Part shown: positions 7,101-32,399 of the stretch, piece after piece
Numbering within the stretch: position 1 is the first letter of the stretch
Layout: each line of letters starts with the position of its first letter
From: an uncultured Micavibrio sp.
Lineage (GTDB): Bacteria > Pseudomonadota > Alphaproteobacteria > Micavibrionales > Micavibrionaceae
Reading direction: 5' to 3'
Assembly: GCA_964351905.1 (NCBI GenBank)
Contig: CAYGPG010000002.1
Location: 49,320 to 113,319 of the forward strand
DNA: 64,000 nucleotides
Position numbers and translations under genes: made by a program
The notes under the pieces: generated by a model
Database searches by the model: none
What the model was told of the DNA's origin: nothing
What the model saw: only the letters and a program-made list of their open reading frames with translations

Positions 7101-8447
7101 ATGAAATTAGCAGTTATTGGCACTGGTTACGTTGGTTTGGTTTCAGGGGCGTGTTTTTCTCAAATAGGGCATGATGTTGTCTGTGTTGATAATAATGAAG
7201 TTAAAATAAAGACTATCAACAAAGGTCAAATGCCAATTTTTGAACTAGGTTTGGAAGAATTGGTCACGCAACAAGTTAATGCAGGGCGTTTAAGTTTTAC
7301 AACAAATCTGGTTGAAGCGGTAAAGGGTGCAGATGCTGTTTTTATTGGGGTGGGAACGCCGCCGCGCGTGGAAGATGGTCATGCGGATTTAACCTATGTT
7401 TATCAAGCAGCAAAAGAAATCTCGCAAGCGGTTGAGGGCTATACGGTTTTGGTGACAAAATCGACGGTGCCGGTTGGAACAGCGCGTGAGATTGAAAAGA
7501 TTGTGGCGGAGCATAAGCAGGCGAGCGCGATAATTGATGTGGCATCGAACCCAGAATTTTTACGTGAGGGTGTGGCGATTGATGATTTTCTCAACCCAGA
7601 TCGTGTTGTTTATGGGGCGAGTGCAGAGCGTGCGTTGGATGTATTACGAGCGATTTACAAACCTTTAGCGGATAACAATGTACCTATGGTGGAGGCTACG
7701 CCGGAGACATCTGAAATAATAAAATATGCAGGAAATGCGTTTTTGGCGACGAAGATTACATTTATCAATGAAATTGCGAATTTGTGCGAAGCCGCAGGGG
7801 GTAATGTTGAAGATGTTGCCCGCGGTATCGGGCTTGATGATCGTATTGGTAAAAAATTCTTACGTGCAGGGCCTGGTTATGGTGGATCATGCTTTCCAAA
7901 AGACACTCTGGCATTGGTACAAACAGGGCATTTGAAAAATGCGCGGCAATATCTGGTAGAAGCCGTTGTTGAATCGAACGATAACCGTCAAAAACAAATG
8001 GCGCAGCGCATTATACAAGCCTGTGGTGGGTCAGTTCAGGGCAAGAAAATTGGAATTCTTGGTGTGGCGTTCAAGGCGAATACAGATGATGTGCGTGGTG
8101 CGCCCGCGTTGACCATTATACAGGCTTTGATTGAGGCGGGAGCAGAGGTACATGCGCATGACCCTCAAGCACAGAAAGAAGCGCAAGAATTGATACAGGA
8201 CGTATCGTGGTGCGATAATCCTTTGCAGGTGGCTCAAAATGCAGATGCACTCGCGATTATTACAGAATGGGATGAGTATAAAGAGCTGGACATGCAAGTC
8301 GTTTACGATTCCATGGCAAATAAAAATCTGATTGATATGCGCAATATTTATGATCCCGCAAAAATGCAAAATTTAGGATTCAATTATATTTCTATTGGGC
8401 GTCTAGCCGAAAATCAGGCTGACCATAAATTAAAAGCGGTGTCTTGA
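7101..8447 (+). CDS. ugd: UDP-glucose 6-dehydrogenase
   Basis: 448 aa. Rossmann IGTGYVGL, catalytic GGSCFPKD and the C-terminal UDP-binding domain. Confidence 0.9.
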   Translation: MKLAVIGTGYVGLVSGACFSQIGHDVVCVDNNEVKIKTINKGQMPIFELGLEELVTQQVNAGRLSFTTNLVEAVKGADAVFIGVGTPPRVEDGHADLTYVYQAAKEISQAVEGYTVLVTKSTVPVGTAREIEKIVAEHKQASAIIDVASNPEFLREGVAIDDFLNPDRVVYGASAERALDVLRAIYKPLADNNVPMVEATPETSEIIKYAGNAFLATKITFINEIANLCEAAGGNVEDVARGIGLDDRIGKKFLRAGPGYGGSCFPKDTLALVQTGHLKNARQYLVEAVVESNDNRQKQMAQRIIQACGGSVQGKKIGILGVAFKANTDDVRGAPALTIIQALIEAGAEVHAHDPQAQKEAQELIQDVSWCDNPLQVAQNADALAIITEWDEYKELDMQVVYDSMANKNLIDMRNIYDPAKMQNLGFNYISIGRLAENQADHKLKAVS

Positions 8448-8448
8448 T

Positions 8449-9060
8449 ATGAAGAAGATGCTTCTTGTTTCTACGTTTGAAGGATTTGAGTCAAAATTAG
8501 ATGCTTTTTTAAAAGAAGAGTTACTCAGTAAAAAAATTGTTTGTATTCCGACGGCAGCCTATGTCGAAAAAGGTTATGAAGATTGGTTGCCTGCGGAAAT
8601 GTTACCATTGCAAAAACGTATGGTTGATTTTCAGATATTAGATATTAAGGGCAAATCATTTGAAGAAGTTGATACAGCCACAAAGGATGCTGATATCATT
8701 TATGTGACGGGGGGCAATACGTATCATTTATTAGAGCAAGCACAGGCCTGTAATCTAAAAAAATGTATTGAGAAATGTTTTGAACGCGGCGGTCTATATT
8801 TTGGGAGTAGTGCGGGGGGCGTTGTACCCAGCCCAAGGATTGATTTTGTTGAAGATATAGATGTGAATATCAACAATATCAATGATTTTGAAGGATTGAA
8901 TTTAATTGATTTTCTTTTTCTACCCCATTTAGACCATAAGCATTATGGCCCTATTGTTTCTAAAATGGCAGAAAAGCTTAAGCTTGAAAAAGAAAATGTT
9001 GTAGGTTTAAACGATGACCAAGGCCTCTATATTGAAGGCTCTTATATAAGGATTATTTAA
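8449..9060 (+). CDS. Peptidase S51 (dipeptidase E / cyanophycinase-like) family protein
   Basis: 203 aa. IIYVTGGNTYHLL and nucleophile elbow FGSSAGG, as in PepE. Starts 2 nt after the ugd stop. Confidence 0.7.
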   Translation: MKKMLLVSTFEGFESKLDAFLKEELLSKKIVCIPTAAYVEKGYEDWLPAEMLPLQKRMVDFQILDIKGKSFEEVDTATKDADIIYVTGGNTYHLLEQAQACNLKKCIEKCFERGGLYFGSSAGGVVPSPRIDFVEDIDVNINNINDFEGLNLIDFLFLPHLDHKHYGPIVSKMAEKLKLEKENVVGLNDDQGLYIEGSYIRII

Positions 9061-9061
9061 C

Positions 9062-9871
9062 ATGTCAGATCAACATTCACCTTACCTTGATGAGCTTGAG
9101 GCGCGTTCTATTTATATTATTCGTGAGGCTTATGCGCGGATTGATAATATGGCGATGCTTTGGTCAATTGGTAAAGATTCAACCGCGATGCTTTGGTTGG
9201 TGCGTAAGGCATTTTTTGGCCGTGTGCCATTTCCGCTTGTATTGTTGGACACAGAACAAGAAATGGATGAAGTTTATGCATTCCGCGACAACTTGACCAA
9301 AGAGTGGGATTTACCTGTCATTAGCCATCTTTGCCCGCCAGAAGAAGAGATGGATCAAACCTTGCCGCCCGCAACCCGTGCGGCGATGCGTAAGACAGAA
9401 GGACTTAAAAGCCTTTTGAAAGAACATCAATATAAAGGTGTGATTTGTGGTATTCGCCGTGATGAGCAAGGTTTGCGCGCGAAAGAGCGTGTGTTCTCTC
9501 CGCGTTCGCTTGATGGCTCATGGGATTTTAAAGATCAACCGGCTGAATTTTGGGATCAATATAAAACGGAGACTCCAGAAAATTGCCACATGCGTATCCA
9601 CCCGATTTTGCATTGGACGGAGTTGGATATTTGGCGTTATACGCGCCGTGAGAATATTCCACTATGTGATTTATATTATGCACGTGATGGCATGCGTTAT
9701 CGCTCGCTGGGGGAGAAAAATATCACCAAGCCTGTGCCGAGTGATGCGGATACGATTGATAAAATTATCGAAGAATTAGAAACGACCAATACGTCAGAAC
9801 GCGAAGGCCGTGCGATGGACAAAGAAACAGAAGATAGTTTTGAGAAGTTGAGAACGCAGGGGTATATGTGA
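9062..9871 (+). CDS. cysD: Sulfate adenylyltransferase subunit 2
   Basis: 269 aa. PAPS-reductase/ATP-PPase fold with WSIGKDS and CGIRRDE. Starts 2 nt after the preceding stop. Confidence 0.9.
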   Translation: MSDQHSPYLDELEARSIYIIREAYARIDNMAMLWSIGKDSTAMLWLVRKAFFGRVPFPLVLLDTEQEMDEVYAFRDNLTKEWDLPVISHLCPPEEEMDQTLPPATRAAMRKTEGLKSLLKEHQYKGVICGIRRDEQGLRAKERVFSPRSLDGSWDFKDQPAEFWDQYKTETPENCHMRIHPILHWTELDIWRYTRRENIPLCDLYYARDGMRYRSLGEKNITKPVPSDADTIDKIIEELETTNTSEREGRAMDKETEDSFEKLRTQGYM

Positions 9872-9912
9872 CAGAAATCTTGGTGTTCACATCTTTGAAT
9901 ACCTTAGATGAT

Positions 9913-9960
9913 GTCATTCTTGCGAAAGCGGAGATCTATTTATTTTAACTGCAAGGACGC
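9913..9960. repeat. Degenerate fragment of a hairpin MITE-like repeat
   Basis: GTCATTCTTGCGAAAGCGGAGATC...; the terminus resembles the GTCATT(G/C)CGA family. No matching right end was found. Confidence 0.4.
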
Positions 9961-9995
9961 AGAGTTTTTAAGAGTAAAACGAATTGAACTAAGCC

Positions 9996-10313
9996 GTCAT
10001 ACTGAGTGTGACTGAGGATACAGAAAAAGAACAAAATGAAAAAATATACAATATTAATGGTAGCTGTATTTTTGTTAATGTCTGGGTGTAAAAAGCAAAC
10101 TTGGGATGGTTATGTTTATCCCAATCGTCATGATCTAAGTAAATCAGATTTTGTTGGAACGTTTAATTCAGAAGATGAATGTTATGGATATGCTGAAGAT
10201 TACTTAGCAAGAAAGTACTTTGATGGTCACGTTAATGAAGCCGTTTATCATGGTGATATGGAATGTGTGAAGAGGTAGTATTATTGCTGTATCCTCGCAT
10301 ATGCAGAGATAAC
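9996..10313. mobile_element. Possible inverted-repeat-bounded insertion carrying a small lipoprotein gene
   Basis: Left end GTCATACTGAGTGTGACTGAGGATACAG and right end CTGTATCCTCGCATATGCAGAGATAAC. The 10-bp perfect IR GAGGATACAG/CTGTATCCTC lies at 10014-10023 and 10287-10296. The segment sits between cysD and cysNC, which are normally adjacent. Confidence 0.3.
10036..10278 (+). CDS. Small lipoprotein, hypothetical
   Basis: 80 aa. Signal plus lipobox LLMSGC. Confidence 0.5.
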   Translation: MKKYTILMVAVFLLMSGCKKQTWDGYVYPNRHDLSKSDFVGTFNSEDECYGYAEDYLARKYFDGHVNEAVYHGDMECVKR

Positions 10314-10348
10314 AAGTTATATTTATTAATGGTTAAAGAAAAAATAAA

Positions 10349-12262
10349 ATGAAACAGATCAATAAATCATCAAATCTATCTTTGAGCGTGGTAATTGTAG
10401 GACACGTGGATCATGGGAAGTCGAGCCTGATAGGTCGGTTGCTTCATGATACGGATAGCTTGCCCGCGGGGAAACGTGAAGAATTAGAAGCAATTTGTGA
10501 AAAGCGTGGCGTGCCGTTTGAATGGTCGTTCTTGCTTGATGCGTTTCAGGCGGAGCGTGATCAGGCGGTAACGATTGATACAACGCAGATTTTCTTTTCA
10601 ACGGCGGCGCGTAACTATGTGATTATTGATGCGCCAGGCCATCGTGAGTTTTTGAAAAATATGATTTCAGGTGCGGCGCAGGCTGATGCAGCGGTCTTGG
10701 TGGTGGATGCGTCTGAAGGGGTGCGTGAACAAACAAAACGTCATGCTTATATGCTTTATTTGCTTGGCATGCGCCAAATTTGTGTTGTTGTCAATAAAAT
10801 GGACAAGATGAATTATGATGCAGAAGTTTTTAATGACGTATCGAAACAGACGACTGATTATTTAGAATCTTTAGGCTTGCAAGCGTCTTATATTATACCG
10901 ATTTCCGCGCGTGAAGGGGACATGATGGCGACCCGTGGCGGGGCAATGTCATGGTATAAAGGTAAAACCTTGATTGAGGTTTTGGATGCGTTTGATGTCT
11001 CTAGCCCGCCAGTGGCGCAGCCGTTGCGTTTCCCTGTTCAGGACGTTTATCGTTATGAAGAAGAACGTATTTTGGTCGGACGGATTGAAACGGGTATTTT
11101 ACGCACAGGGGATACATTATTTTTCTCCCCCACCAATGAAAAAGCGGTGATTACATCGATTAAAAGCTGGCCAGAAGATGAAGGGTTGGTGCAGGCCAAT
11201 GCAGGAGATTCAGTCGGGATTACGTTGGATGATCGTATCTTTGTGGAGCGCGGTCATGTGGGTAGCCATGAGAAAAACTTGCCGATGTTATCGAACGTGT
11301 TTCAGGCCAATATTTTCTGGTTGTCTCATACGCCGTTGAAGGTGGGTAACACGTACAAGGTACGTTTTGGCACAACAGAAGCCACGGTGAGTGTACAATC
11401 TATTGACACACTGATTGATACAGGCGATCTTCAAAAGCAAGATAATCCAAGTGAAGTCGGGCGTAATGCCGTCGCAGAAGTGACGTTCCGCGCGCGTGAA
11501 ATGTTGCCGATTGATCCGCATGAAGATAACGCCAAGATGGGGCGTGTTGTTCTTTATGAAGGATATGATGTTGCGGGTGGTGGTTTGATGAATATGGATG
11601 GTTATGCCGACCAACGTCAGTCTGCGGAGCCGAAATCTAAGAATATTTATAAAGTGTCACATTCTGTGACGCCAGAAATGCGGGCAGAACGTTTTGGTCA
11701 TTTTGGCGGCGTGTTTTGGTTTACGGGATTGTCGGGATCAGGGAAATCAACCTTGGCCGTGGCGGTGGAGCAGGAAATTTTTGAACGTGGTATGAATGCT
11801 TATGTGCTTGATGGGGATAATGTACGTTATGGATTGAATTCAGACCTTGGGTTTTCACCAGAAGATCGCACGGAAAATATCCGTCGCGTAGGCGAGGTGG
11901 CGGCATTGCAAGCGACCGCAGGTGCGGTAACGTTATCGGCATTTATTTCACCTTATCAGGCTGACCGCGAAAAAGCGCGTGCCGCTGCGCCGCATATTTT
12001 CCATGAAATTTATGTGAAGGCAGATTTGGCCACCTGCGAAAGCCGTGATCCGAAGGGGCTTTATAAGAAAGCGCGTCAGGGGGAAATTAAAGAATTTACA
12101 GGAATTGATAGCCCGTATGAGCCACCGACCAACCCAGATTTGGTGGTCGACACACAAGGCAATGACATTGAAACCTGCGTGAAGCAGATTGTGAATTATA
12201 TCGAAGCCGCCGTTAAAGCCGAGCAGAAAAATAGTAAAGAAAAAGTTGTGGCGATTAAATGA
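10349..12262 (+). CDS. cysNC: Bifunctional sulfate adenylyltransferase subunit 1 / adenylylsulfate kinase (NodQ-type fusion)
   Basis: 637 aa. GTPase motifs [14 protein letters not shown] and NKMD, then an APS kinase P-loop GLSGSGKST. Confidence 0.9.
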
Positions 12263-13131
12263 GTAAAATTTTACAGCATCTTCCTGCGTTGTTGAACCAA
12301 GTGCGTCGTGTGGCGGTTGAGGCGGGGAATCTCACGCTCGATTATTTTGACGAGAGTGGTTTTGAAGGGGCGGATGCGAAGTCTGATGGATCGCCCGTGA
12401 CGGTTGCAGATCAAAAAGCAGAAGAATTAATTGAAAAAGCCTTAAAAGAAATTACGCCTGATGTCTTGATTGTAGGAGAAGAGGCGGCGAGCGAAGGGTA
12501 TCGTCCTGATCTGACAAAACATGAATATTTTTGGCTGGTTGATCCGTTGGATGGCACGAAAGAATTTATTTCTGGCAGTGGTGATTATACGGTCAATATT
12601 GCGCTTATTCAGCGTCCCCCCCTTACATCTCCCCCGCCTGCGGGGGGGAGTTTGAGGGGGGGTAAACCTGTCCTTGGTGTTGTCTATGCCCCCGTGCATG
12701 GCGAGCTTTATGCAGCATGTGGCGAGGGCACAGCAATCCGTTGGATGGAAGATACGGATAAAGAGCGCGCGATTTCTGTGCGTCCTGTGCCAAATGAGGG
12801 GCTGACGATTGTATCGAGTAAGTCGCATGGTAAGGGCGATAAGTTGGATGCGTTTTTAGAAAATTATAAAATCAAAAAACAAATTCAACGCGGAAGCTCT
12901 TTAAAAATGTGTTCCATTGCGGCGGGTAAGGCCGATATGTATCCGCGTTTTGGATTAACATGTGAATGGGATACAGCCGCCGCGCATGCGGTTTTAAATG
13001 CGGCGGGCGGTGTGATAACAGATATTCATGGCAATGAATTGACCTATGGTGGGGCTGATCCGAAATTTCTTAATCCAGAATTTATTGCGCGCAGTGCGGA
13101 GATTGATTTGCCTGAGAGCGTAGCGGCATAG
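12259..13131 (+). CDS. cysQ: 3'(2'),5'-bisphosphate nucleotidase, with an in-frame repeat-derived insertion
   Basis: 290 aa. IMPase-family motifs [12 protein letters not shown] and [10 protein letters not shown]. 4-nt ATGA overlap with cysNC. Confidence 0.85.
12616..12663. repeat. G/C-homopolymer palindromic module inside cysQ
   Basis: CCCCCCCTTACATCTCCCCCGCCTGCGGGGGGGAGTTTGAGGGGGGG, translated in frame as [17 protein letters not shown] second copy lies in alaS. Confidence 0.7.
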
Positions 13132-13137
13132 GCACTG

Positions 13138-14082
13138 ATGAAAAATAATCTTAAAATTGCTGTCACAGGTGGATCAGGTTTTATCGGTACGCGTCTGATC
13201 AAAACGCTCAACGATGAAGGGCATGAAACCAATATCATTGATATCGCCGATAAGGCGCCGATTGATATTTTAGATCAGGACGCGCTGGATCAAGCAGTGT
13301 CTGGCAAGGATGTTATTTACCATTTAGCGGCGGAGCATCGGGATGATGTTTTTCCGCGCGCGCGTTATTATGATGTGAATGGTGAAGGTACGCAAAATGT
13401 TGTCAACGCGGCGGAGAAAGCGGGTGTGAATAAAATTATCTTTACCAGTTCGGTTGCCGTTTATGCGTTGGGTCAGGGCGCAAAATCAGAAGACAGCCCC
13501 GTTGCGCCGTTTAATGATTACGGCAAAAGTAAATTAGAGGCCGAAGAAATTTTAATAAAATGGGCAAGAGCAGATAAAGAGCGTTCGCTTATTATTATTC
13601 GCCCTGCGGTTGTGTTTGGTGAAAATAATCGTGGTAATGTCTATAATTTAATCAATCAAATTGCCAAAGGGCGGTTCTTGATGATTGGGCGCGGGCAAAA
13701 TAAAAAATCCATGGGTTATGTTGGCAATGTGGCGGCCTTTTTAAAATATAGTGTTAGTTTAAATGAGAATGTTGGCATTTATAATTATGCGGATAAGCCT
13801 GATTTAACCACCCAAGAATTGATTGGCACGATTTATCAGAGCTTTAATAAAACAAAGCCTAAATTTCATATTCCCTACATTATTGGCATTGTCGCCGGGA
13901 TGACGTTTGATGTGCTGGCGAAGATAACCGGTAAGACATTCCCGATTAGTGCGATCCGCGTTAAAAAGTTTTGCTCCGATACGGTTGTCGATGCCGATAA
14001 GGTCATGAAAAGTGGCTTTACGCCCCTATATACTATGCGTGAAGGTGTGGAGCGTATGATCAAACATGACTTTAAGAATTAA
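13138..14082 (+). CDS. NAD-dependent epimerase/dehydratase (extended SDR)
   Basis: 314 aa. VTGGSGFIG and catalytic YGKSK. Confidence 0.8.
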   Translation: MKNNLKIAVTGGSGFIGTRLIKTLNDEGHETNIIDIADKAPIDILDQDALDQAVSGKDVIYHLAAEHRDDVFPRARYYDVNGEGTQNVVNAAEKAGVNKIIFTSSVAVYALGQGAKSEDSPVAPFNDYGKSKLEAEEILIKWARADKERSLIIIRPAVVFGENNRGNVYNLINQIAKGRFLMIGRGQNKKSMGYVGNVAAFLKYSVSLNENVGIYNYADKPDLTTQELIGTIYQSFNKTKPKFHIPYIIGIVAGMTFDVLAKITGKTFPISAIRVKKFCSDTVVDADKVMKSGFTPLYTMREGVERMIKHDFKN

Positions 14083-19204: not shown

Positions 19205-20230
19205 GTGACTAAAAAAGCTCTTATTACAGGGATTACAGGCCAAGATGGCGCTATTTTAGCTGAAATTTTGCTCAATAAAGAGTATGACGTGCATGGTATG
19301 CGGGAATATTCCGCCGTGCCTGATGAGGAACGCTTAAGCCATTTAGAGGATTTAAATCTGCATTATGGTGATATGACGGATTCCTCAAGTTTGTTGCGAT
19401 TGATTGATAAAACACAGCCTGATGAAATTTATAATTTAGCAGCGTTGAGTCATGTTCATGCCAGTTTTGATTTACCTGAAGTGACCGCCAATACGAATGC
19501 GTTAGGGCCGTTAAGGATTTTGGAAGTGCTACGCAATATGAGCGCGACAAAAGAAATTAAATTTTATCAGGCCTCCAGTTCTGAAATGTTTGGGCGTACG
19601 CCTACACCGCAAAATGAGGACAGTGTTTTTGAACCGTGCAGTCCATATGGCACGGCGAAACTTTATGCGTATTGGATGGTTAAAAATTATCGCGACACTT
19701 ATGGATTGTTTGCCTGTAATGGCATTTTATTTAATCATGAAAGCGCGACACGCGGTGAGAATTTTGTAACGCGTAAAATCACCAAAGCAGTGTGTGAAAT
19801 TGAAGCAGGAATGCGTGACAATATCACGTTGGGAAATTTAGAATCCCAAAGAGATTGGGGGCATGCCAAAGATTATATGGAAGGCGCGTGGAAAATGCTG
19901 CAACGCGAAACGCCCGGTGACTATGTGTTGGCAACAGGAAAATCTTATAGCGTTAGGGATTTTGTCAATAGTGCCTTTAAGCATATCGGTCGTGAAATTA
20001 TGTGGGATGGGCAGGGTTTAGAAGAGGTTGGGCGCGATAAAATTTCTGGCCAAATACTTGTTAAAATAGATCCTGATCTTTTTCGTCCTAAGGAAGTTCA
20101 TCATTTATTGGGCGATGCCTCAAAAGCGCAAAAAGAATTAGGGTGGAGCCCTAAAATTTCTTTTGAGCAGATGATTTCAGAAATGATTGACGCAGATCGT
20201 TTAGTCTCAAAAAAATATAATGCCGCTTAA
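19205..20230 (+). CDS. gmd: GDP-mannose 4,6-dehydratase
   Basis: 341 aa with a GTG start. ITGITGQDG, SSSEMFG and YGTAKLYAYW. Confidence 0.9.
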   Translation: MTKKALITGITGQDGAILAEILLNKEYDVHGMREYSAVPDEERLSHLEDLNLHYGDMTDSSSLLRLIDKTQPDEIYNLAALSHVHASFDLPEVTANTNALGPLRILEVLRNMSATKEIKFYQASSSEMFGRTPTPQNEDSVFEPCSPYGTAKLYAYWMVKNYRDTYGLFACNGILFNHESATRGENFVTRKITKAVCEIEAGMRDNITLGNLESQRDWGHAKDYMEGAWKMLQRETPGDYVLATGKSYSVRDFVNSAFKHIGREIMWDGQGLEEVGRDKISGQILVKIDPDLFRPKEVHHLLGDASKAQKELGWSPKISFEQMISEMIDADRLVSKKYNAA

Positions 20231-21161
20231 AGATTTAAAAAACAAACGCGTTTGGGTCGCAGGCGAAACAGGCTTGGTTGGGCGCGCTGTTACATCTCGT
20301 TTAAAATCAGAGAATTGTGAAATTATTTCTGCAGCGCATGATGTTTTAGATTTAACAGATCAACGACAAACTTATGATTGGATGGCGAAACATAAGCCCG
20401 ATGTAATCATCATGGCGGCGGGTAAGGTTGGCGGTATTGGCGCGAACAGTCAAAATCAGGCTGAGTTTTTGTTCCAAAACCTCTCAATGGCGCAAAATGT
20501 TATCCATGGGGCATTTCAGGCAGGTGTTGAGAATTTATTATATTTAGGATCGTCGTGCATTTACCCCAAAATGGCGGAGCAACCTATCAAAGAAGACGCG
20601 TTATTGACGAGGGAGTTAGAGCCGACCAATGAAGGATATGCGTTGGCAAAAATTATGGGATTAAAATTGTGTCAGTATTATAAAGCGCAATATAGTGTGA
20701 ATTATATATCCGCTATGCCAACAAACTTATACGGGCCGTTTGACCGTTTTGACGAAGAAATATCACACGTTATTGCTTCGCTCATTTTAAAAATCCATAA
20801 AGCGAAAATTGAAAATAAAGAAAACGTGACGTTGTGGGGAACAGGTGCGCCGTTACGAGAATTTTTATATAATTATGATTTGGCGGAAGGGTTAATTCAT
20901 CTTTTGAAAAATTATGATGGTGATACGCCTGTCAATATTGGAAGTGGGAAAGAGATTTCGATTCAAGAGCTGGCGCAGAAAATATCATCTATTGTTGGTT
21001 ATGAAGGACGCATTGAATTTGATACGTCAAAACCTGATGGAACGCCGCGTAAATTATTGGACTCATCAAAAATTAATCAGATAGGTTGGCGAGCGAAAAC
21101 GCCTTTGGATATAGGTCTGCAAAGAACGTATGATTGGTTTTTGGAAAACGTAAAGTTTTAA
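20220..21161 (+). CDS. fcl: GDP-L-fucose synthase
   Basis: 313 aa. VAGETGLVGRA, GSSCIYP and YALAK. Overlaps gmd by 11 nt. Confidence 0.9.
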   Translation: MPLKDLKNKRVWVAGETGLVGRAVTSRLKSENCEIISAAHDVLDLTDQRQTYDWMAKHKPDVIIMAAGKVGGIGANSQNQAEFLFQNLSMAQNVIHGAFQAGVENLLYLGSSCIYPKMAEQPIKEDALLTRELEPTNEGYALAKIMGLKLCQYYKAQYSVNYISAMPTNLYGPFDRFDEEISHVIASLILKIHKAKIENKENVTLWGTGAPLREFLYNYDLAEGLIHLLKNYDGDTPVNIGSGKEISIQELAQKISSIVGYEGRIEFDTSKPDGTPRKLLDSSKINQIGWRAKTPLDIGLQRTYDWFLENVKF

Positions 21162-25529: not shown

Positions 25530-25691
25530 ATGAAAATAAAACACTTCTTAAAATCAGAAAATGGCGCAACAGCCATAGAATATGCGCTAATTGCCACTGG
25601 GATATCCCTTGCCATTGTTCTTGTTGTTTTTGCGTTCGGTGAACAGATTGCTGATCTGTATGACGGTCTTGCAACTTTGCTTGCGGGCTAA
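25530..25691 (+). CDS. flp: Flp family type IVb pilin
   Basis: 53 aa, below the ORF-track cutoff. MKIKHFLKSENG|ATAIEYALIATGISLAIVLVVF contains the Flp prepilin motif G/ATAIEYALI followed by a hydrophobic helix. Confidence 0.7.
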   Translation: MKIKHFLKSENGATAIEYALIATGISLAIVLVVFAFGEQIADLYDGLATLLAG

Positions 25692-26872: not shown

Positions 26873-27187
26873 ATGAAGAAATTATTATTATTAGCTGCGT
26901 TTGGTGTTGCTGTATCTACTGCGCCTGCAATTGCGGGTCACCATGAAGGTATGGGCGATAAAAAACATAAAATGTTTGAGAAACATGACACAAACGGTGA
27001 TGGCATGATTTCCATGGATGAATATATGGCCAAAGCAAAAGCAAAATTTGCTGAAAAAGATGTAAATGGCGATGGCATGATTTCTCAAGAAGAAGCCAAG
27101 GAAGCTAAATCTGAAAAGCGTGAGAAGTGGAAAGAAAAGCGCGAAAAAATGAAGGAAATGAAAACGGAAATGAAAGATTCTGAATAA
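26873..27187 (+). CDS. Secreted EF-hand calcium-binding protein
   Basis: 104 aa with a signal peptide. Two canonical EF loops, DTNGDGMISMDE and DVNGDGMISQEE, and a K/E-rich tail. Confidence 0.7.
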   Translation: MKKLLLLAAFGVAVSTAPAIAGHHEGMGDKKHKMFEKHDTNGDGMISMDEYMAKAKAKFAEKDVNGDGMISQEEAKEAKSEKREKWKEKREKMKEMKTEMKDSE

Positions 27188-28414: not shown

Positions 28415-28430
28415 TGGTATGAATATTGCA
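28415..28430 (+). promoter_or_regulatory. Candidate sigma-54 (-24/-12) promoter of the flagellin-like gene
   Basis: TGGTATGAATATTGCA has GG and GC at the spacing of the TGGCAC-N5-TTGCW consensus. It lies 31 nt upstream of the ATG, with a GGAAGG Shine-Dalgarno in between and a long AT-rich tract upstream. Confidence 0.4.
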
Positions 28431-28460
28431 AATTTTACCTATCATTGCGGGAAGGCATAA

Positions 28461-30050
28461 ATGGTAAGAGAAGTAGTCGTAGGCGCAGCAATCAAGAGTA
28501 CGTTGACAAGCATTCAACGTAGTCGTGAACGCTTGGACGCGACATCAGAGCGTCTTGCCACAGGTTTGAAGGTAAATCGCCCTATCGATCAACCTCAAAA
28601 CTTTTTTCAAGCGTCTTACCTTCAAAATACAGCGACTGATTATACCAAGCTTTTGGATAAGATGGCGTTGGGTGTGCGTACCATTCAAAACGCAATCACG
28701 GGTGTTGAAACAATTGAAAGTATTTTAAGGCTTGCTGAGAATAAGGCTCTCGAAGCGAAAAGAGAATTAGAGCAAACAAGCTCTGCATTGCCGGATGCGA
28801 TTTTAGCAAACGAGCCAGTTGGTTATTTCCGCCTGAATGATGCCAATGAGGCCGAGGCTGTAAATTTAGGAACTCTAGGCGCAGGAGGTAATGGTGTTTA
28901 CACGAATGGTGTGACACAAGGTGATGAAATTTTATTTTATGGGGCAGGGGGATTGCCTGCAAAATTTGATGGTAACGGACAATATATTGCAGTACCCAAT
29001 GATGACTCTATCAATACAAACGGACCATTTCCTGAGAGAACTGTTGAGCTTATATTCAATGCTGAAACTGTTGGTGGACGTCAAGTTTTGTGGGAAGAAG
29101 GCGGGACAGTTAACAGCTTAAATATTTATATCGATAACGGGCAACTCCGCGTGAACGGTCGTACAACGAATGGTGGTGGATATGGGCCTTTTGACATTGC
29201 TGTTCCTATTCAAGCGGGTGTTTCTTACCATGTAGCTTTCACGCAAGATGGGCCTAGCGTCGCTAATGGTTTTAATGGAACTTTTAAGGGGTTCATTAAT
29301 GGCGAACAATTTGGCGATACGCAAACAATCAATACGATTATAGGGAACCATCCAAATGAAAACGGAATTGGCGCTGTAAATAATAATGTTTATTTCCATG
29401 ATGATGGTCCAGGCAATGCTCCGAGTCGTGGAGATGGGACATTCTCTTTTCATGGGCAAATATCTGATGTTGCAATTTATAATTCAATCTTAACGAATGA
29501 TGAAATTGAATTGCGCTATACAGCAACGTCCTTACCTATTTCAGAAGCGTTTCGTTTAGATACTGTTGAGTTTTTAGAACAGATAGATAGCTTGGTTGAA
29601 GATACACAGTTTCGCGGTATCAATTTACTAGAGAATGAAGAACTGATTGTTGATTTCAATCGTGATAACCGTAACAAATTGAAAGTTCAAGGATCTTCTT
29701 TCTCTGTTGAATCTTTGGGGTTAGACGATATTAATTACCAAAAGCCATCACAAGTTGAAGCGGCGATTCGTAATATTCAAAAAGCAATTAATCAGGTGCG
29801 AGAATTTGGGAGTTCTTTGGCGAATGATTTAAACATTATCCAAACACGTCAAGATTTTACACGGAATACGATTAATATTGCACAGTCTGGCGCGGATGAT
29901 TTAATCGTTGCCGATCAAAATGAAGAGGGTGCAAATCTACTTGCAGAACAAACACGTCTGTCCCTTGCGACAACATCGTTAAGCCTTGCTAGCCAAAGCC
30001 AGCAGGCTGTTTTAACGATTTTTAATGCACCGGGGTTTGGTGGGTTTTAA
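28461..30050 (+). CDS. Flagellin-family protein with a central LamG/ConA-like lectin domain
   Basis: 529 aa. The N-terminal (SERLATGLKVNRPIDQPQNFF...) and C-terminal (LIVADQNEEGANLLAEQTRLSLATTSLSLASQSQQAVLTIF) helices follow the Caulobacter-type flagellin pattern. The middle ~200 aa follow the Laminin_G_3 pattern and end FHGQISDVAIYNSILTNDEIELRY. Confidence 0.7.
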   Translation: MVREVVVGAAIKSTLTSIQRSRERLDATSERLATGLKVNRPIDQPQNFFQASYLQNTATDYTKLLDKMALGVRTIQNAITGVETIESILRLAENKALEAKRELEQTSSALPDAILANEPVGYFRLNDANEAEAVNLGTLGAGGNGVYTNGVTQGDEILFYGAGGLPAKFDGNGQYIAVPNDDSINTNGPFPERTVELIFNAETVGGRQVLWEEGGTVNSLNIYIDNGQLRVNGRTTNGGGYGPFDIAVPIQAGVSYHVAFTQDGPSVANGFNGTFKGFINGEQFGDTQTINTIIGNHPNENGIGAVNNNVYFHDDGPGNAPSRGDGTFSFHGQISDVAIYNSILTNDEIELRYTATSLPISEAFRLDTVEFLEQIDSLVEDTQFRGINLLENEELIVDFNRDNRNKLKVQGSSFSVESLGLDDINYQKPSQVEAAIRNIQKAINQVREFGSSLANDLNIIQTRQDFTRNTINIAQSGADDLIVADQNEEGANLLAEQTRLSLATTSLSLASQSQQAVLTIFNAPGFGGF

Positions 30051-31888
30051 GACGCTTTTTTAACGGCGCGCTTTGCAGCATTCTTCTTTGCTTTTCCACC
30101 AGCATAAGGTTTTTTACCTTTTTGTGGTGCGCCTTTAGGTTTGCCGCGTTGTGGTTTAAAAGCAGAACCTGTTTTCTTTTCGCCAAATTTAGGTTTGGAT
30201 TTTCCTGCAGGCTTGCCTGATTTTGAAAATGGCTTATCTGAAGATTTTCCCTCTGGTTTTTTGCCCTCAAATTTCTTAAAGGGTTTCTTTCCACGGCTTA
30301 AAGGTTGCTCACCAGAAGCATCTTTTTTCTTGGTAAAATCTGTTCTTGGCTTGCTGGTTTTAAAGGGGCTTTTCTTATTGGTGTCTTTTTCTTCACGATA
30401 TCCACGATCTTCACGTTGTGGATTTTGTGCAGAAAATTCGCCCTCTTGTTTTGGTGTACCATCCCATTTGTGGTTACGGTTTGGGTTGCCTTGTTTTGGC
30501 TTATTATCATTATTGTATGATTTTTTCTTATCACCAAATGGCTTCTTTTTTTCACCGTAAGCAGGTTTATCGCCAAAGGTTTTCTTTTTACCCGCATAAG
30601 CAGGCTTATCACCAAAAGATTTTTTCTTTTCGCCGTAGGCTGGCTTATCACCATAATCTGGTTTATCACCAAATTTACCTTTATTTGCGCCGCCTGAACG
30701 AGGCTTGCCTTTAAAGTGTGCGGCGCCGCCACGGCTTGATTTACCACCGCCCATGCGCTTACCTTTACCCTTCTTCTCAGGCGCAAAGCGGGGCTTCATA
30801 TCTGGGTTCATGAGCAATTCAATCGCGTGCCATTTGCGTTCTTCTGTTGGTGTCACAAGCGATAACGCTTGGCCTTTTGCGCCTGCACGGGCGGTACGGC
30901 CAATACGGTGAATGAAGTCTTCTGGCACTTGTGGAAGATCATAGTTAATTACGTGTTCAATGTGTGGAATATCCAAACCACGCGCCACAACATCCGTTGC
31001 GACAAGGATTTTAAATTTCATGTCACGGAATGTTTGGATAACGCGGGCACGACGGCTTTGTTTCATATCACCATTGATGGCTTGGGCTTCATGTCCTGCT
31101 TTTTGTAGACGTTTGGCCATGCGCTCCGTTCCGTGTTTTGTTTTCACAAAGATAATGATGGAACCCATACGCTTATCAAGCTCTTCCAAAAGCACATCGC
31201 CTTTTTCACCATCGGTGATACGCAAAATTTGCTGATCGATGTTATCAGAAGGATTAATTGTTGATCCCACGGCAATACGCTCTGGATTTTCAAGATACGC
31301 TTGTGACATACGCAAAATTTCTTTGGGTAGGGTGGCTGAGAACATCAATGTCTGACGCGTCTCTGGCAAGTAGGCGAAAATACGATCAAGCTGAACGCTG
31401 AATCCCATATCCAACATACGGTCTGTTTCGTCCAAAACAAGGAAGTCAGTTTGTCTTAGTTTTAATGTGCCGCGATCAAGGTGGTCATTAATACGACCAG
31501 GCGTCCCAACGACAAGGCGCGGACGTTTTTTAATTTGGTTGAGTTGTTTTTGCATGGAATCGCCACCAATAAGGAAGGCTGTATTGATCTCTCCGCCTTT
31601 GCCCAAAAGTTGGTGCATGATGTCCATGATCTGTTTACCCAATTCACGCGTTGGCGTTAGAACAAGGGCACAGGCTTCTGGGTTGTTCATTAAGTGTTGA
31701 ACAAGCGGAATGGCAAACGCGGCAGTCTTACCAGTTCCTGTTTGGGCTGTTCCCATAATGTCACGACCATCAAGGGCGAAGGGGATCGCTTGGGCTTGGA
31801 TTGGTGTAGGCGTGTCATATTTCATGATCTCAAGTGATTTATTTAAGATCGGGTGTAGATTTAATTCGTTAAAGCTTTTCATAGTCAT
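30047..31888 (-). CDS. rhlE: DEAD-box ATP-dependent RNA helicase with long basic repeat tail
   Basis: 613 aa. Q motif, AQTGTGKT, DEADR-like LDETDRM, SAT and HRIGRTARAG. About 240 aa K/G/P-rich C-terminal extension. Confidence 0.9.
   Translation of the reverse strand: MTMKSFNELNLHPILNKSLEIMKYDTPTPIQAQAIPFALDGRDIMGTAQTGTGKTAAFAIPLVQHLMNNPEACALVLTPTRELGKQIMDIMHQLLGKGGEINTAFLIGGDSMQKQLNQIKKRPRLVVGTPGRINDHLDRGTLKLRQTDFLVLDETDRMLDMGFSVQLDRIFAYLPETRQTLMFSATLPKEILRMSQAYLENPERIAVGSTINPSDNIDQQILRITDGEKGDVLLEELDKRMGSIIIFVKTKHGTERMAKRLQKAGHEAQAINGDMKQSRRARVIQTFRDMKFKILVATDVVARGLDIPHIEHVINYDLPQVPEDFIHRIGRTARAGAKGQALSLVTPTEERKWHAIELLMNPDMKPRFAPEKKGKGKRMGGGKSSRGGAAHFKGKPRSGGANKGKFGDKPDYGDKPAYGEKKKSFGDKPAYAGKKKTFGDKPAYGEKKKPFGDKKKSYNNDNKPKQGNPNRNHKWDGTPKQEGEFSAQNPQREDRGYREEKDTNKKSPFKTSKPRTDFTKKKDASGEQPLSRGKKPFKKFEGKKPEGKSSDKPFSKSGKPAGKSKPKFGEKKTGSAFKPQRGKPKGAPQKGKKPYAGGKAKKNAAKRAVKKAS
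30521..30682 (-). repeat. 39-nt tandem coding repeat in the helicase tail
   Basis: TTATC(A/G)CCAAA recurs at 30528, 30567, 30606 and 30645 with an exact 39-nt period. It encodes (F)GDKPAYGEKKK(S/T/P) units. Confidence 0.7.
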
Positions 31889-32334: not shown

Positions 32335-32399
32335 GTCATTGCAAGGTTTATCCATGCAATCCAAATACCATAGATTACACGGACAAGCCGTGTAATGAC
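32335..32399. repeat. Degenerate hairpin MITE-like repeat, copy D
   Basis: GTCATTGCAAGG...ATGCAATCCAAA...TTACACGGACAAGCCGTGTAATGAC. Lies directly downstream of the ABC-F gene stop. Confidence 0.55.

Follow-up and report, generated by a model that had tools for sequence, protein, structure and literature searches.

The outer domains of flagellins are usually hypervariable and are treated as dispensable decoration, and few of them, e.g., that of flagellinolysin, are known to confer a biochemical function on the filament. In the flagellinolysins, i.e., HExxH metallopeptidase flagellins such as FliA(H) of Clostridium haemolyticum, a functional fold occupies the hypervariable region, and such a fold is compatible with assembly. 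A 64-kb stretch of DNA from an uncultured Micavibrio sp. (contig CAYGPG010000002.1; hereafter, the window) carries a gene that appears to follow the same concept, with a predicted LamG/ConA-like jelly-roll where flagellinolysin has an enzyme domain. We refer to its product as the LamG flagellin. The closest relatives of solved structure to its D0/D1 core are FljJ-O of Caulobacter crescentus. Caulobacter flagellins are ~273 aa long and without an outer domain, whereas the LamG flagellin adds a 250-aa module and an 8-aa tail. Genomes of both kinds hold several flagellin paralogues, some away from the main cluster, and the Caulobacter regulatory set of FliX, a sigma-54 activator, FlbT, and FlaF is also present in the flagellar cluster of relatives of the window. 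Some Caulobacter flagellins are driven by sigma-54 promoters.

Other described systems share single traits with this gene. In Helicobacter and Campylobacter (FlaB) and in Vibrio (FlaA), a second, minor flagellin is expressed from a sigma-54 promoter and the main one from another promoter class, as appears to be the case here; these sigma-54-dependent minor flagellins form a spatially distinct segment of the filament. They are close to the major flagellin in architecture, whereas the outer domain of the LamG flagellin is wholly different. Campylobacter FlaC is likewise a divergent flagellin paralogue, one that leaves the cell through the flagellum instead of joining the filament, and the LamG flagellin might similarly be exported for a non-propeller role; however, FlaC has no central domain and the LamG flagellin has a large, conserved one. 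The Bradyrhizobium-type large flagellins (PRK12688/PRK14708) gave the best NCBIfam matches, and have the N-terminal motif 'D-PxNFF' in common with the LamG flagellin. Finally, Laminin_G_3 proteins are secreted by the Sec or type I secretion system and are multidomain, while here a single copy of the module lies inside a flagellin core.

The gene lies where the preliminary description of the window had placed it, and its open reading frame (ORF) is uninterrupted, encoding 529 aa from an ATG; the start methionine, M1, was at least 90% conserved among 61 aligned orthologues. That description had read the gene as a flagellin with a LamG module in place of the variable region, and sequence profiles, predicted structure, and fold search all agreed with this central claim. 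Its domain limits stood in part: both the flagellin ends and the module were found, with the C-terminal flagellin part starting at ~aa 358, not 440, and the module spanning ~aa 110-356, not 150-350. The N-terminal 'PVGYFRLND...' segment is thereby assigned to the module. A tail NAPGFGGF after ...LTIF and a 4-bp TTAA overlap with the convergent helicase gene had also been noted, and both are present. The features of the locus are:

28461..30050 (+): LamG flagellin gene, ATG start, 529 aa plus stop (ORF, Pfam, NCBIfam, PDB search)
28461..28775 (+): N-terminal flagellin core, aa 1-105 (Pfam Flagellin_N, AlphaFold2 (AF2) helices, hhalign)
28788..29528 (+): LamG/ConA-like jelly-roll module, aa 110-356, between ND1 and CD1 (Pfam, AF2, Foldseek)
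29532..30023 (+): C-terminal flagellin core, aa 358-521 (PDB alignments, hhalign to type B, AF2)
30024..30047 (+): 8-aa C-terminal extension NAPGFGGF past the usual flagellin end (predicted local distance difference test (pLDDT) score <50 for aa 525-529)
30047..30050 (both strands): TTAA, in which the stop codon of the flagellin (+) overlaps that of the convergent DEAD-box helicase (-; helicase by Pfam)
28415..28430 (+): predicted sigma-54-type -24/-12 element TGGTATGAATATTGCA, closely matching the consensus TGGCAC-N5-TTGCA and located 30 nt upstream of the ATG
28449..28455 (+): Shine-Dalgarno-like GGGAAGG, 5 nt before the ATG (read from the sequence)

The flagellin-type ends were supported by Pfam, by profile searches of PDB, and by structure prediction. 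Flagellin_N (PF00669) matched aa 12-104 with 35.0 bits (cut-off 26.6). A phmmer search of PDB sequences aligned aa 15-101 and 362-522 to the ~273-aa Caulobacter FljL/K/M/N, and a profile of the family matched Caulobacter FljM/N/K/L at 7e-24 (C-terminal part: profile positions 333-509), S. meliloti FlaA (4e-16), and Salmonella FliC. When aligned by hhalign with the family of a neighboring flagellin, referred to below as type B, the family gave a probability of 100% (E=7e-93), and the C-terminal core was ~50% identical to that co-resident flagellin. The NCBIfam matches were all to flagellin models (PRK12688, PRK14708, PRK12687, flagella_HExxH, and PRK12802). The best of these, PRK12688 (5e-43, 147 bits) and PRK14708 (2e-40, 139 bits), aligned in two stretches covering the termini only; since the scores are far under the respective cut-offs of 614 and 1384 and the middle is unrelated, the LamG flagellin is not a member of either subfamily. 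A flagellinolysin was also considered and rejected, as flagella_HExxH (NF033876) scored 20.7 bits against a cut-off of 205 and its match, at aa 403-451, fell in the core and not in the middle. A subfamily motif, LATGLKVNRPIDQPQNFF, lies in the N-terminal core.

A full-length AF2 model built from 61 sequences (pLDDT 86.8; predicted template modeling score (pTM) 0.73) showed the canonical D0/D1 helices with a jelly-roll as the outer domain. The N-terminal helices are ND0 (aa 9-34) and ND1 (aa 45-104), and the C-terminal core consists of a CD1 helix (358-380), the D1 beta-hairpin typical of flagellins (394-410), and a continuous CD1/CD0 helix (429-522); a beta-sandwich occupies aa 121-340, and the ends (aa 1-5 and 525-529) are disordered. 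Since the core comprises aa 1-105 and 358-521, i.e., ~270 aa, it is the size of a Caulobacter flagellin, and the insert is located exactly where the D2/D3 outer domains usually exit, between helices 45-104 and 358-380. In the model, then, the complete flagellin D0/D1 core is retained. Tails of 6-10 aa, poorly conserved and often G[TS]GS[ND]LF-like, were found in orthologues of the window's clade and were largely absent from a clade of ~40% identity; type B flagellins end at ...LF.

The LamG/ConA-like fold of the middle region was indicated by three methods in agreement. Pfam Laminin_G_3 (PF13385) matched aa 170-349 with 40.5 bits (cut-off 27.6), and one orthologue (locus L014) reached 55.2 bits. 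An AF2 model of the domain alone (aa 110-356) had ~14 strands, a pLDDT of 91.4, and a pTM of 0.91, and a Foldseek search with this model returned ConA-like lectin jelly-rolls as the nearest solved folds (probability 1.00). The lectin-like domains of trypanosomal trans-sialidases, tetanus/botulinum (TeNT/BoNT) HCN, and NTNH had TMq values of 0.58-0.68, while pentraxins (CRP) and the sialic-acid-binding CBM40 modules of NanA and NanJ were lower (0.44-0.49); the 50 best matches to the domain included no flagellin. The family sequence profile also matched the NanB lectin domain, a pentraxin, and an S-layer-domain protein. Among the polar residues of the module, E196, R207, and D314 were invariant across the 61 orthologues, and E212, E213, H257, H297, H313, and D336 were nearly so. 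According to these models, a LamG/ConA-like jelly-roll replaces the outer domains of the flagellin.

The LamG flagellin belongs to a family whose other full-length members form >100 clusters at 90% identity, with lengths of 505-541 aa and identities of 39-85%. Their sources are metagenome-assembled Alphaproteobacteria, commonly labeled Micavibrio sp. or Rhodospirillales; nearly all of the proteins are annotated with Flagellin_N plus Laminin_G_3, under database names such as 'LamG-like jellyroll fold domain-containing protein', 'flagellin-like hook-associated protein FlgL' (Joint Genome Institute, JGI), or 'hypothetical'. The fusion is thus common, if within one lineage, and already annotated by domain labels only. 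With the LamG module alone, a word-index search yielded just 8 family members, all fragmentary. When the module was searched exhaustively against 1.84 billion cluster representatives, the best 150 matches included ~21 flagellin-LamG proteins of 505-532 aa, whose termini were confirmed with hidden Markov models (HMMs) of the flagellin N- and C-termini. The other matches were proteins of 280-3950 aa, most with 2-6 copies of the module; ten of them were scanned and comprised RTX proteins, a subtilase, a PEP-CTERM protein, and Big_7 or InlB-B-repeat proteins, and the repeats in RTX, subtilase, Big_7, and PEP-CTERM proteins were 29-47% identical to the flagellin's module. Larger proteins with a single LamG copy (659-1349 aa, 44-47% identity) were examined as possible bigger LamG flagellins and rejected, none having flagellin termini. 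Since the module is widespread in extracellular proteins, it appears to be a common building block that was recruited once into a flagellin, and in a rough neighbor-joining tree the LamG flagellins were monophyletic relative to type B. Three RTX (HemolysinCabind) proteins, P0133, P0134, and P0137, have two LamG copies each, 42-45% identical to the flagellin's module. M. aeruginosavorus has been reported to encode a lectin-domain RTX protein with a proposed role in prey recognition (PMC3189940), and the flagellin's module may have been acquired from such an RTX protein.

The preliminary description had found no flanking flagellar gene, and the 64-kb window, the flagellar content of which was assessed from ORFs of at least 150 aa, indeed contains no flagellar family among them. 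To describe the neighborhoods of relatives, species-representative genomes were scanned, yielding 78 loci (numbered with the prefix L) whose ORFs were classified by BLAST and Pfam. Two flagellin types were found in the lineage, the LamG flagellin and type B (~545-590 aa). In comparing the two, hhalign aligned the termini only with confidence; the LamG module and the type-B middle are therefore unrelated. Where neighbors were recognized, type B lies in a cluster of Caulobacter-type layout, preceded by FlgA-FlgH-DksA-FliX-FlgI-...-FliK-FlgD-FlgE and followed by FlbT-FlaF-...-FliF-FliG-...-MotA and a sigma-54 activator; the L014 cluster, for example, encodes FlgA, FlgH, FliX, FlgI, MotA, and the sigma-54 activator. 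In nine genomes (L013, L014, L015, L020, L021, L024, L025, L049, and L067), the LamG flagellin is directly upstream of type B and FlbT-FlaF, with FlgE preceding it wherever the upstream flank is present in the locus.

Elsewhere, including the window's clade (57-85% identity), the LamG flagellin gene is relocated. The nearest relative, L004, shares the window's gene order of GT4 glycosyltransferase, EF-hand protein, rhodanese, LamG flagellin, DEAD helicase, and ABC-F. At least five genomes contain, besides an orphan copy belonging to the window's clade, a type-B flagellar cluster: OFTM75 (L011+L057), OZ244161 (L012+L073), CAYGUV (L008+L064), CALHAW (L006+L066), and JALZUF (L007+L063). A sixth, CAVPYZ (L022+L075), has both flagellin types and no recognized flagellar neighbors at either locus. 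The flagellar genes that the preliminary description had proposed to look for are thus present in relatives with orphan copies, as is a second flagellin (~555 aa); 'orphan' therefore describes the position of the gene only, a term that holds for the window and not for the sister clade, where flgE and the main flagellin flank the gene. We conclude that the family arose beside the main flagellin gene in a Caulobacter-type cluster (FliX, FlbD-like activator, FlbT, and FlaF) and that the gene moved to a housekeeping neighborhood in the window's clade. Horizontal transfer into the window was considered and rejected, with GC content of 39.4% at 28-30 kb vs. ~37-48% across the window and synteny with L004 preserved. 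In L019, two LamG flagellin paralogues stand in tandem (8216-9799 and 9980-11569), and the 10-kb flanks contain no type-B flagellin or flagellar genes.

To compare the conservation of the two flagellins, mean pairwise identity was calculated across the same 14 genomes, i.e., 91 genome pairs. Type B showed identities of 0.79 in the N-terminus, 0.39 in the middle, and 0.71 in the C-terminus, and thus behaves as a classical major flagellin, with conserved termini and a variable middle. The corresponding values for the LamG flagellin were 0.49, 0.46, and 0.49. Its termini were less conserved than those of type B in every one of the 91 pairs, and its middle was more conserved in 77 of the 91; within the LamG family, the module is conserved as much as the termini or more. 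Hence the LamG paralogue behaves as if retained for its surface domain, with a polymerization core that is relaxed but intact. In the flagellum table of M. aeruginosavorus ARL-13, a single flagellin of 1752 nt is listed beside FlbT/FlaF, with by far the highest expression values among the listed neighboring genes (PMC3189940, supplements); this FlbT/FlaF-linked flagellin fits type B as the main subunit.

The two types also differ upstream. Matches to TGGYAYN5TTGCW occurred twice in the window against 0.37 expected by chance, one of them being the element 30 nt upstream of the LamG flagellin, which aligns across orthologous upstream regions and is conserved ahead of orphan copies of the gene. 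In 2.77 Mnt of loci there were 27 strict matches, eight of which lie 29-43 nt upstream of LamG flagellin genes; five others precede flgD (three loci), fliF, and flbT. The element was absent upstream of type-B genes, which have a conserved upstream block of their own with a TTAAC...TATATTAT-type promoter (e.g., L013:6967-7126, L014:11635-11794, and L057:9841-10000). The type-B 5' untranslated region (5'-UTR) contains two conserved hairpins (e.g., GCCCAAGTATTGGGC and TGCAGGATGCA) followed by an invariant AACCTAGGAAAGGAG ribosome-binding region, and is a candidate target of the adjacent FlbT/FlaF translational regulators; this promoter/hairpin leader was absent from the leader of the window's LamG flagellin. 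There, a block TTGCGGGAAGGCATAAATG at the Shine-Dalgarno-like GGGAAGG is kept in the closest orthologues. No consistent match to a sigma-28-like element (CGA[TA]A[AT]) was found upstream of either flagellin type. Around the gene, a sigma-70 consensus scan gave 8 promoter-like sites (5.8±2.5 in shuffled sequence) and a terminator scan gave 2 terminator-like sites (2.1 in shuffled sequence), neither above expectation. Given that the flagellar cluster includes genes for FliX and a sigma-54 activator, we infer that the orphan LamG flagellin is of the sigma-54/FlbD class and under separate regulation from the main flagellin. The other match in the window, TGGTATTTGGATTGCA (32355-32370, -), lies in a 514-nt gap between the ABC-F and DEAD-box helicase genes, ~467 nt upstream of the helicase start, in which no ORF exceeds 42 aa.

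We consider the gene to be a specialized paralogue of the lineage's main flagellin, and assign a probability of roughly 0.6 to the product being a specialized, probably minor or segment-specific, filament subunit that is exported by the type III route and bears its LamG module on the filament surface. Micavibrio spp. have been described as having a single, sheathless polar flagellum (PMC3189940). The LamG flagellin would pass through the flagellar type III apparatus and be co-assembled into this polar filament, where its module would either bind a ligand, for which a glycan of prey or of a surface is the most plausible candidate, or stabilize the filament. Its sigma-54/FlbD-type promoter would time synthesis differently from that of the main flagellin, most likely earlier, which would place it in a hook-proximal segment, as for the sigma-54-dependent FlaB of Helicobacter and Campylobacter; a promoter of this type also precedes the hook gene flgD in some relatives. 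A glycan is suggested because the module family recurs in RTX and adhesin-like proteins, the fold is similar to CBM40 and to the lectin domains of sialidases, and the attachment of Micavibrio to prey has been linked to carbohydrate receptors (PMC3189940). Several points weigh against a filament subunit. Export and incorporation are themselves deduced, and the flagellar cluster is one observed in the genomes of relatives. The sigma-54 promoter is a prediction from a motif match and its conservation. Pfam Flagellin_C (PF00700) scored 12.3 bits at aa 437-519, under its cut-off of 23; some orthologues pass this cut-off, and the C-terminal core is secure despite the low score, given the PDB search, family profile, hhalign, and AF2 model. 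If the protein polymerized, its disordered 8-aa tail would point into the narrow filament channel. The fast evolution of the D0/D1 termini could equally mean release from the need to fit the filament lattice.

Such a release would suit a secreted, non-polymerizing flagellin-like protein, exported via the flagellar type III apparatus to act as a lectin-like factor, either soluble or loosely attached. In 91/91 genome pairs the termini of the LamG flagellin have diverged much faster than those of the main flagellin in the same genomes, functional constraint is concentrated in the module, the C-terminal tail is atypical, the promoter is unlike the main flagellin's, and secreted RTX, subtilase, and PEP-CTERM proteins contain close relatives of the LamG module. 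Nevertheless, D0 and D1 are complete and confidently modeled, including the D1 beta-hairpin, length and architecture are tightly conserved over >100 clusters, the gene originally lay right next to the main flagellin, and the minor filament flagellins of other bacteria are divergent too; we therefore regard secretion without polymerization as rather doubtful. A tentative possibility, compatible with filament incorporation, is that the LamG domain has no ligand and serves as an outer-domain scaffold that tunes stiffness or motility in viscous media through dimerizing or sheath-like packing. Lattice contacts would also yield high conservation of the module, the closest structural neighbors include clostridial neurotoxin HCN, a jelly-roll without an established ligand, and motility-modulating packing of outer domains is documented for other flagellins (PMC8931119, PMC10256154). 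However, extracellular proteins of the adhesin-like and RTX kinds repeatedly employ this module family, the fold resembles the carbohydrate-binding CBM40 and trans-sialidase lectin domains, and a mechanical role alone would leave the retention of a conventional flagellin unexplained. Identity as the hook-filament junction protein FlgL (hook-associated protein 3) is very improbable. Several members are so named by JGI, a label that is generic and common to flagellin and FlgL. The gene follows flgE in nine genomes, and flagellin-terminus HMMs run over ~1.4 Mb of loci detected the two flagellin types only, with no separate FlgL-like ORF in the ~10-kb flanks; however, flgK/flgL are usually elsewhere in alphaproteobacteria and the loci span only ~20 kb. 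All of the profile comparisons argue against FlgL. No FlgL model appeared at E<1 in the NCBIfam scan, the C-terminal core matches the co-resident flagellin (~50% identity; hhalign to the flagellin family, E=7e-93), and the best PDB matches are filament flagellins.

In Micavibrio-like bacteria, the motility organelle might double as a carbohydrate-recognizing device for prey or surfaces, either through a lectin-decorated segment or through a lectin-flagellin secreted through the flagellum; we consider this unlikely on present evidence. Through the sigma-54 promoter, the lectin subunit would then be limited to a particular time or zone of the filament. Cultured Micavibrio are epibiotic, obligate predators, a lifestyle that is extrapolated here to the metagenome-assembled genomes carrying the family. 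Considering this predatory lineage and the carbohydrate receptors of prey attachment, the LamG flagellin is a concrete candidate for flagellum-mediated recognition. An outer domain that is the most constrained part of the protein, together with a conventional flagellin that is kept, is the signature to be expected of a subunit retained for its surface domain. The LamG flagellin could be a natural scaffold for displaying binding modules on a filament, and division of labor between paralogues could be cleanly studied in this pair of flagellins, whose promoters differ and whose conservation patterns are opposite.

Flagellins with recognizable functional outer domains are already known, and the LamG case is not categorically new. 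A catalogue of 682 structural clusters of outer domains names peptidase-like, pectate-lyase-like, and WD40 examples, and the text of the article does not contain the words 'laminin', 'concanavalin', 'lectin', or 'jelly' (PMC11532411). The preliminary description was aware of no LamG-bearing flagellin; similarly, our literature searches found no paper describing one and none relevant on Micavibrio flagellin. Because functional outer domains are known, no such paper was found, and database labels are limited to domains, the LamG flagellin is new only as a variant. What appears new, as judged from sequence, is a lineage-wide family of flagellin paralogues with a LamG outer domain, an inverted pattern of conservation, and a predicted sigma-54-type promoter of its own.

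Other genes of the window are described for completeness. The convergent DEAD-box helicase (30047-31888, -) ends in an extension of ~250 aa, extremely rich in Lys, Gly, and Pro and repetitive, with GDKPAYGEKKK-like repeats. A 53-aa Flp/Fap pilin gene (Pfam Flp_Fap; window ~25530-25691, +; L001:4354-4515) lies 2.8 kb upstream of the flagellin, between an MnmC-like gene and the GT4 glycosyltransferase gene, with no tad/cpa assembly genes nearby. The EF-hand protein encoded at 26873-27187 (+) is a secreted-looking protein of 104 aa with a signal-peptide-like N-terminus, EF-hand Ca2+-binding motifs, and a Lys/Glu-rich tail, and is conserved beside the rhodanese gene in L004. Genes for surface sugars and sulfation are found at 19205-21161 (+) and 7101-14082 (+). 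They include GDP-mannose 4,6-dehydratase and an epimerase/reductase (GDP-6-deoxyhexose synthesis), UDP-glucose dehydrogenase, a CysN/CysC-type sulfate-activation fusion, a protein with a 3'-phosphoadenosine 5'-phosphosulfate (PAPS) reductase domain, and a further NAD-dependent sugar epimerase.

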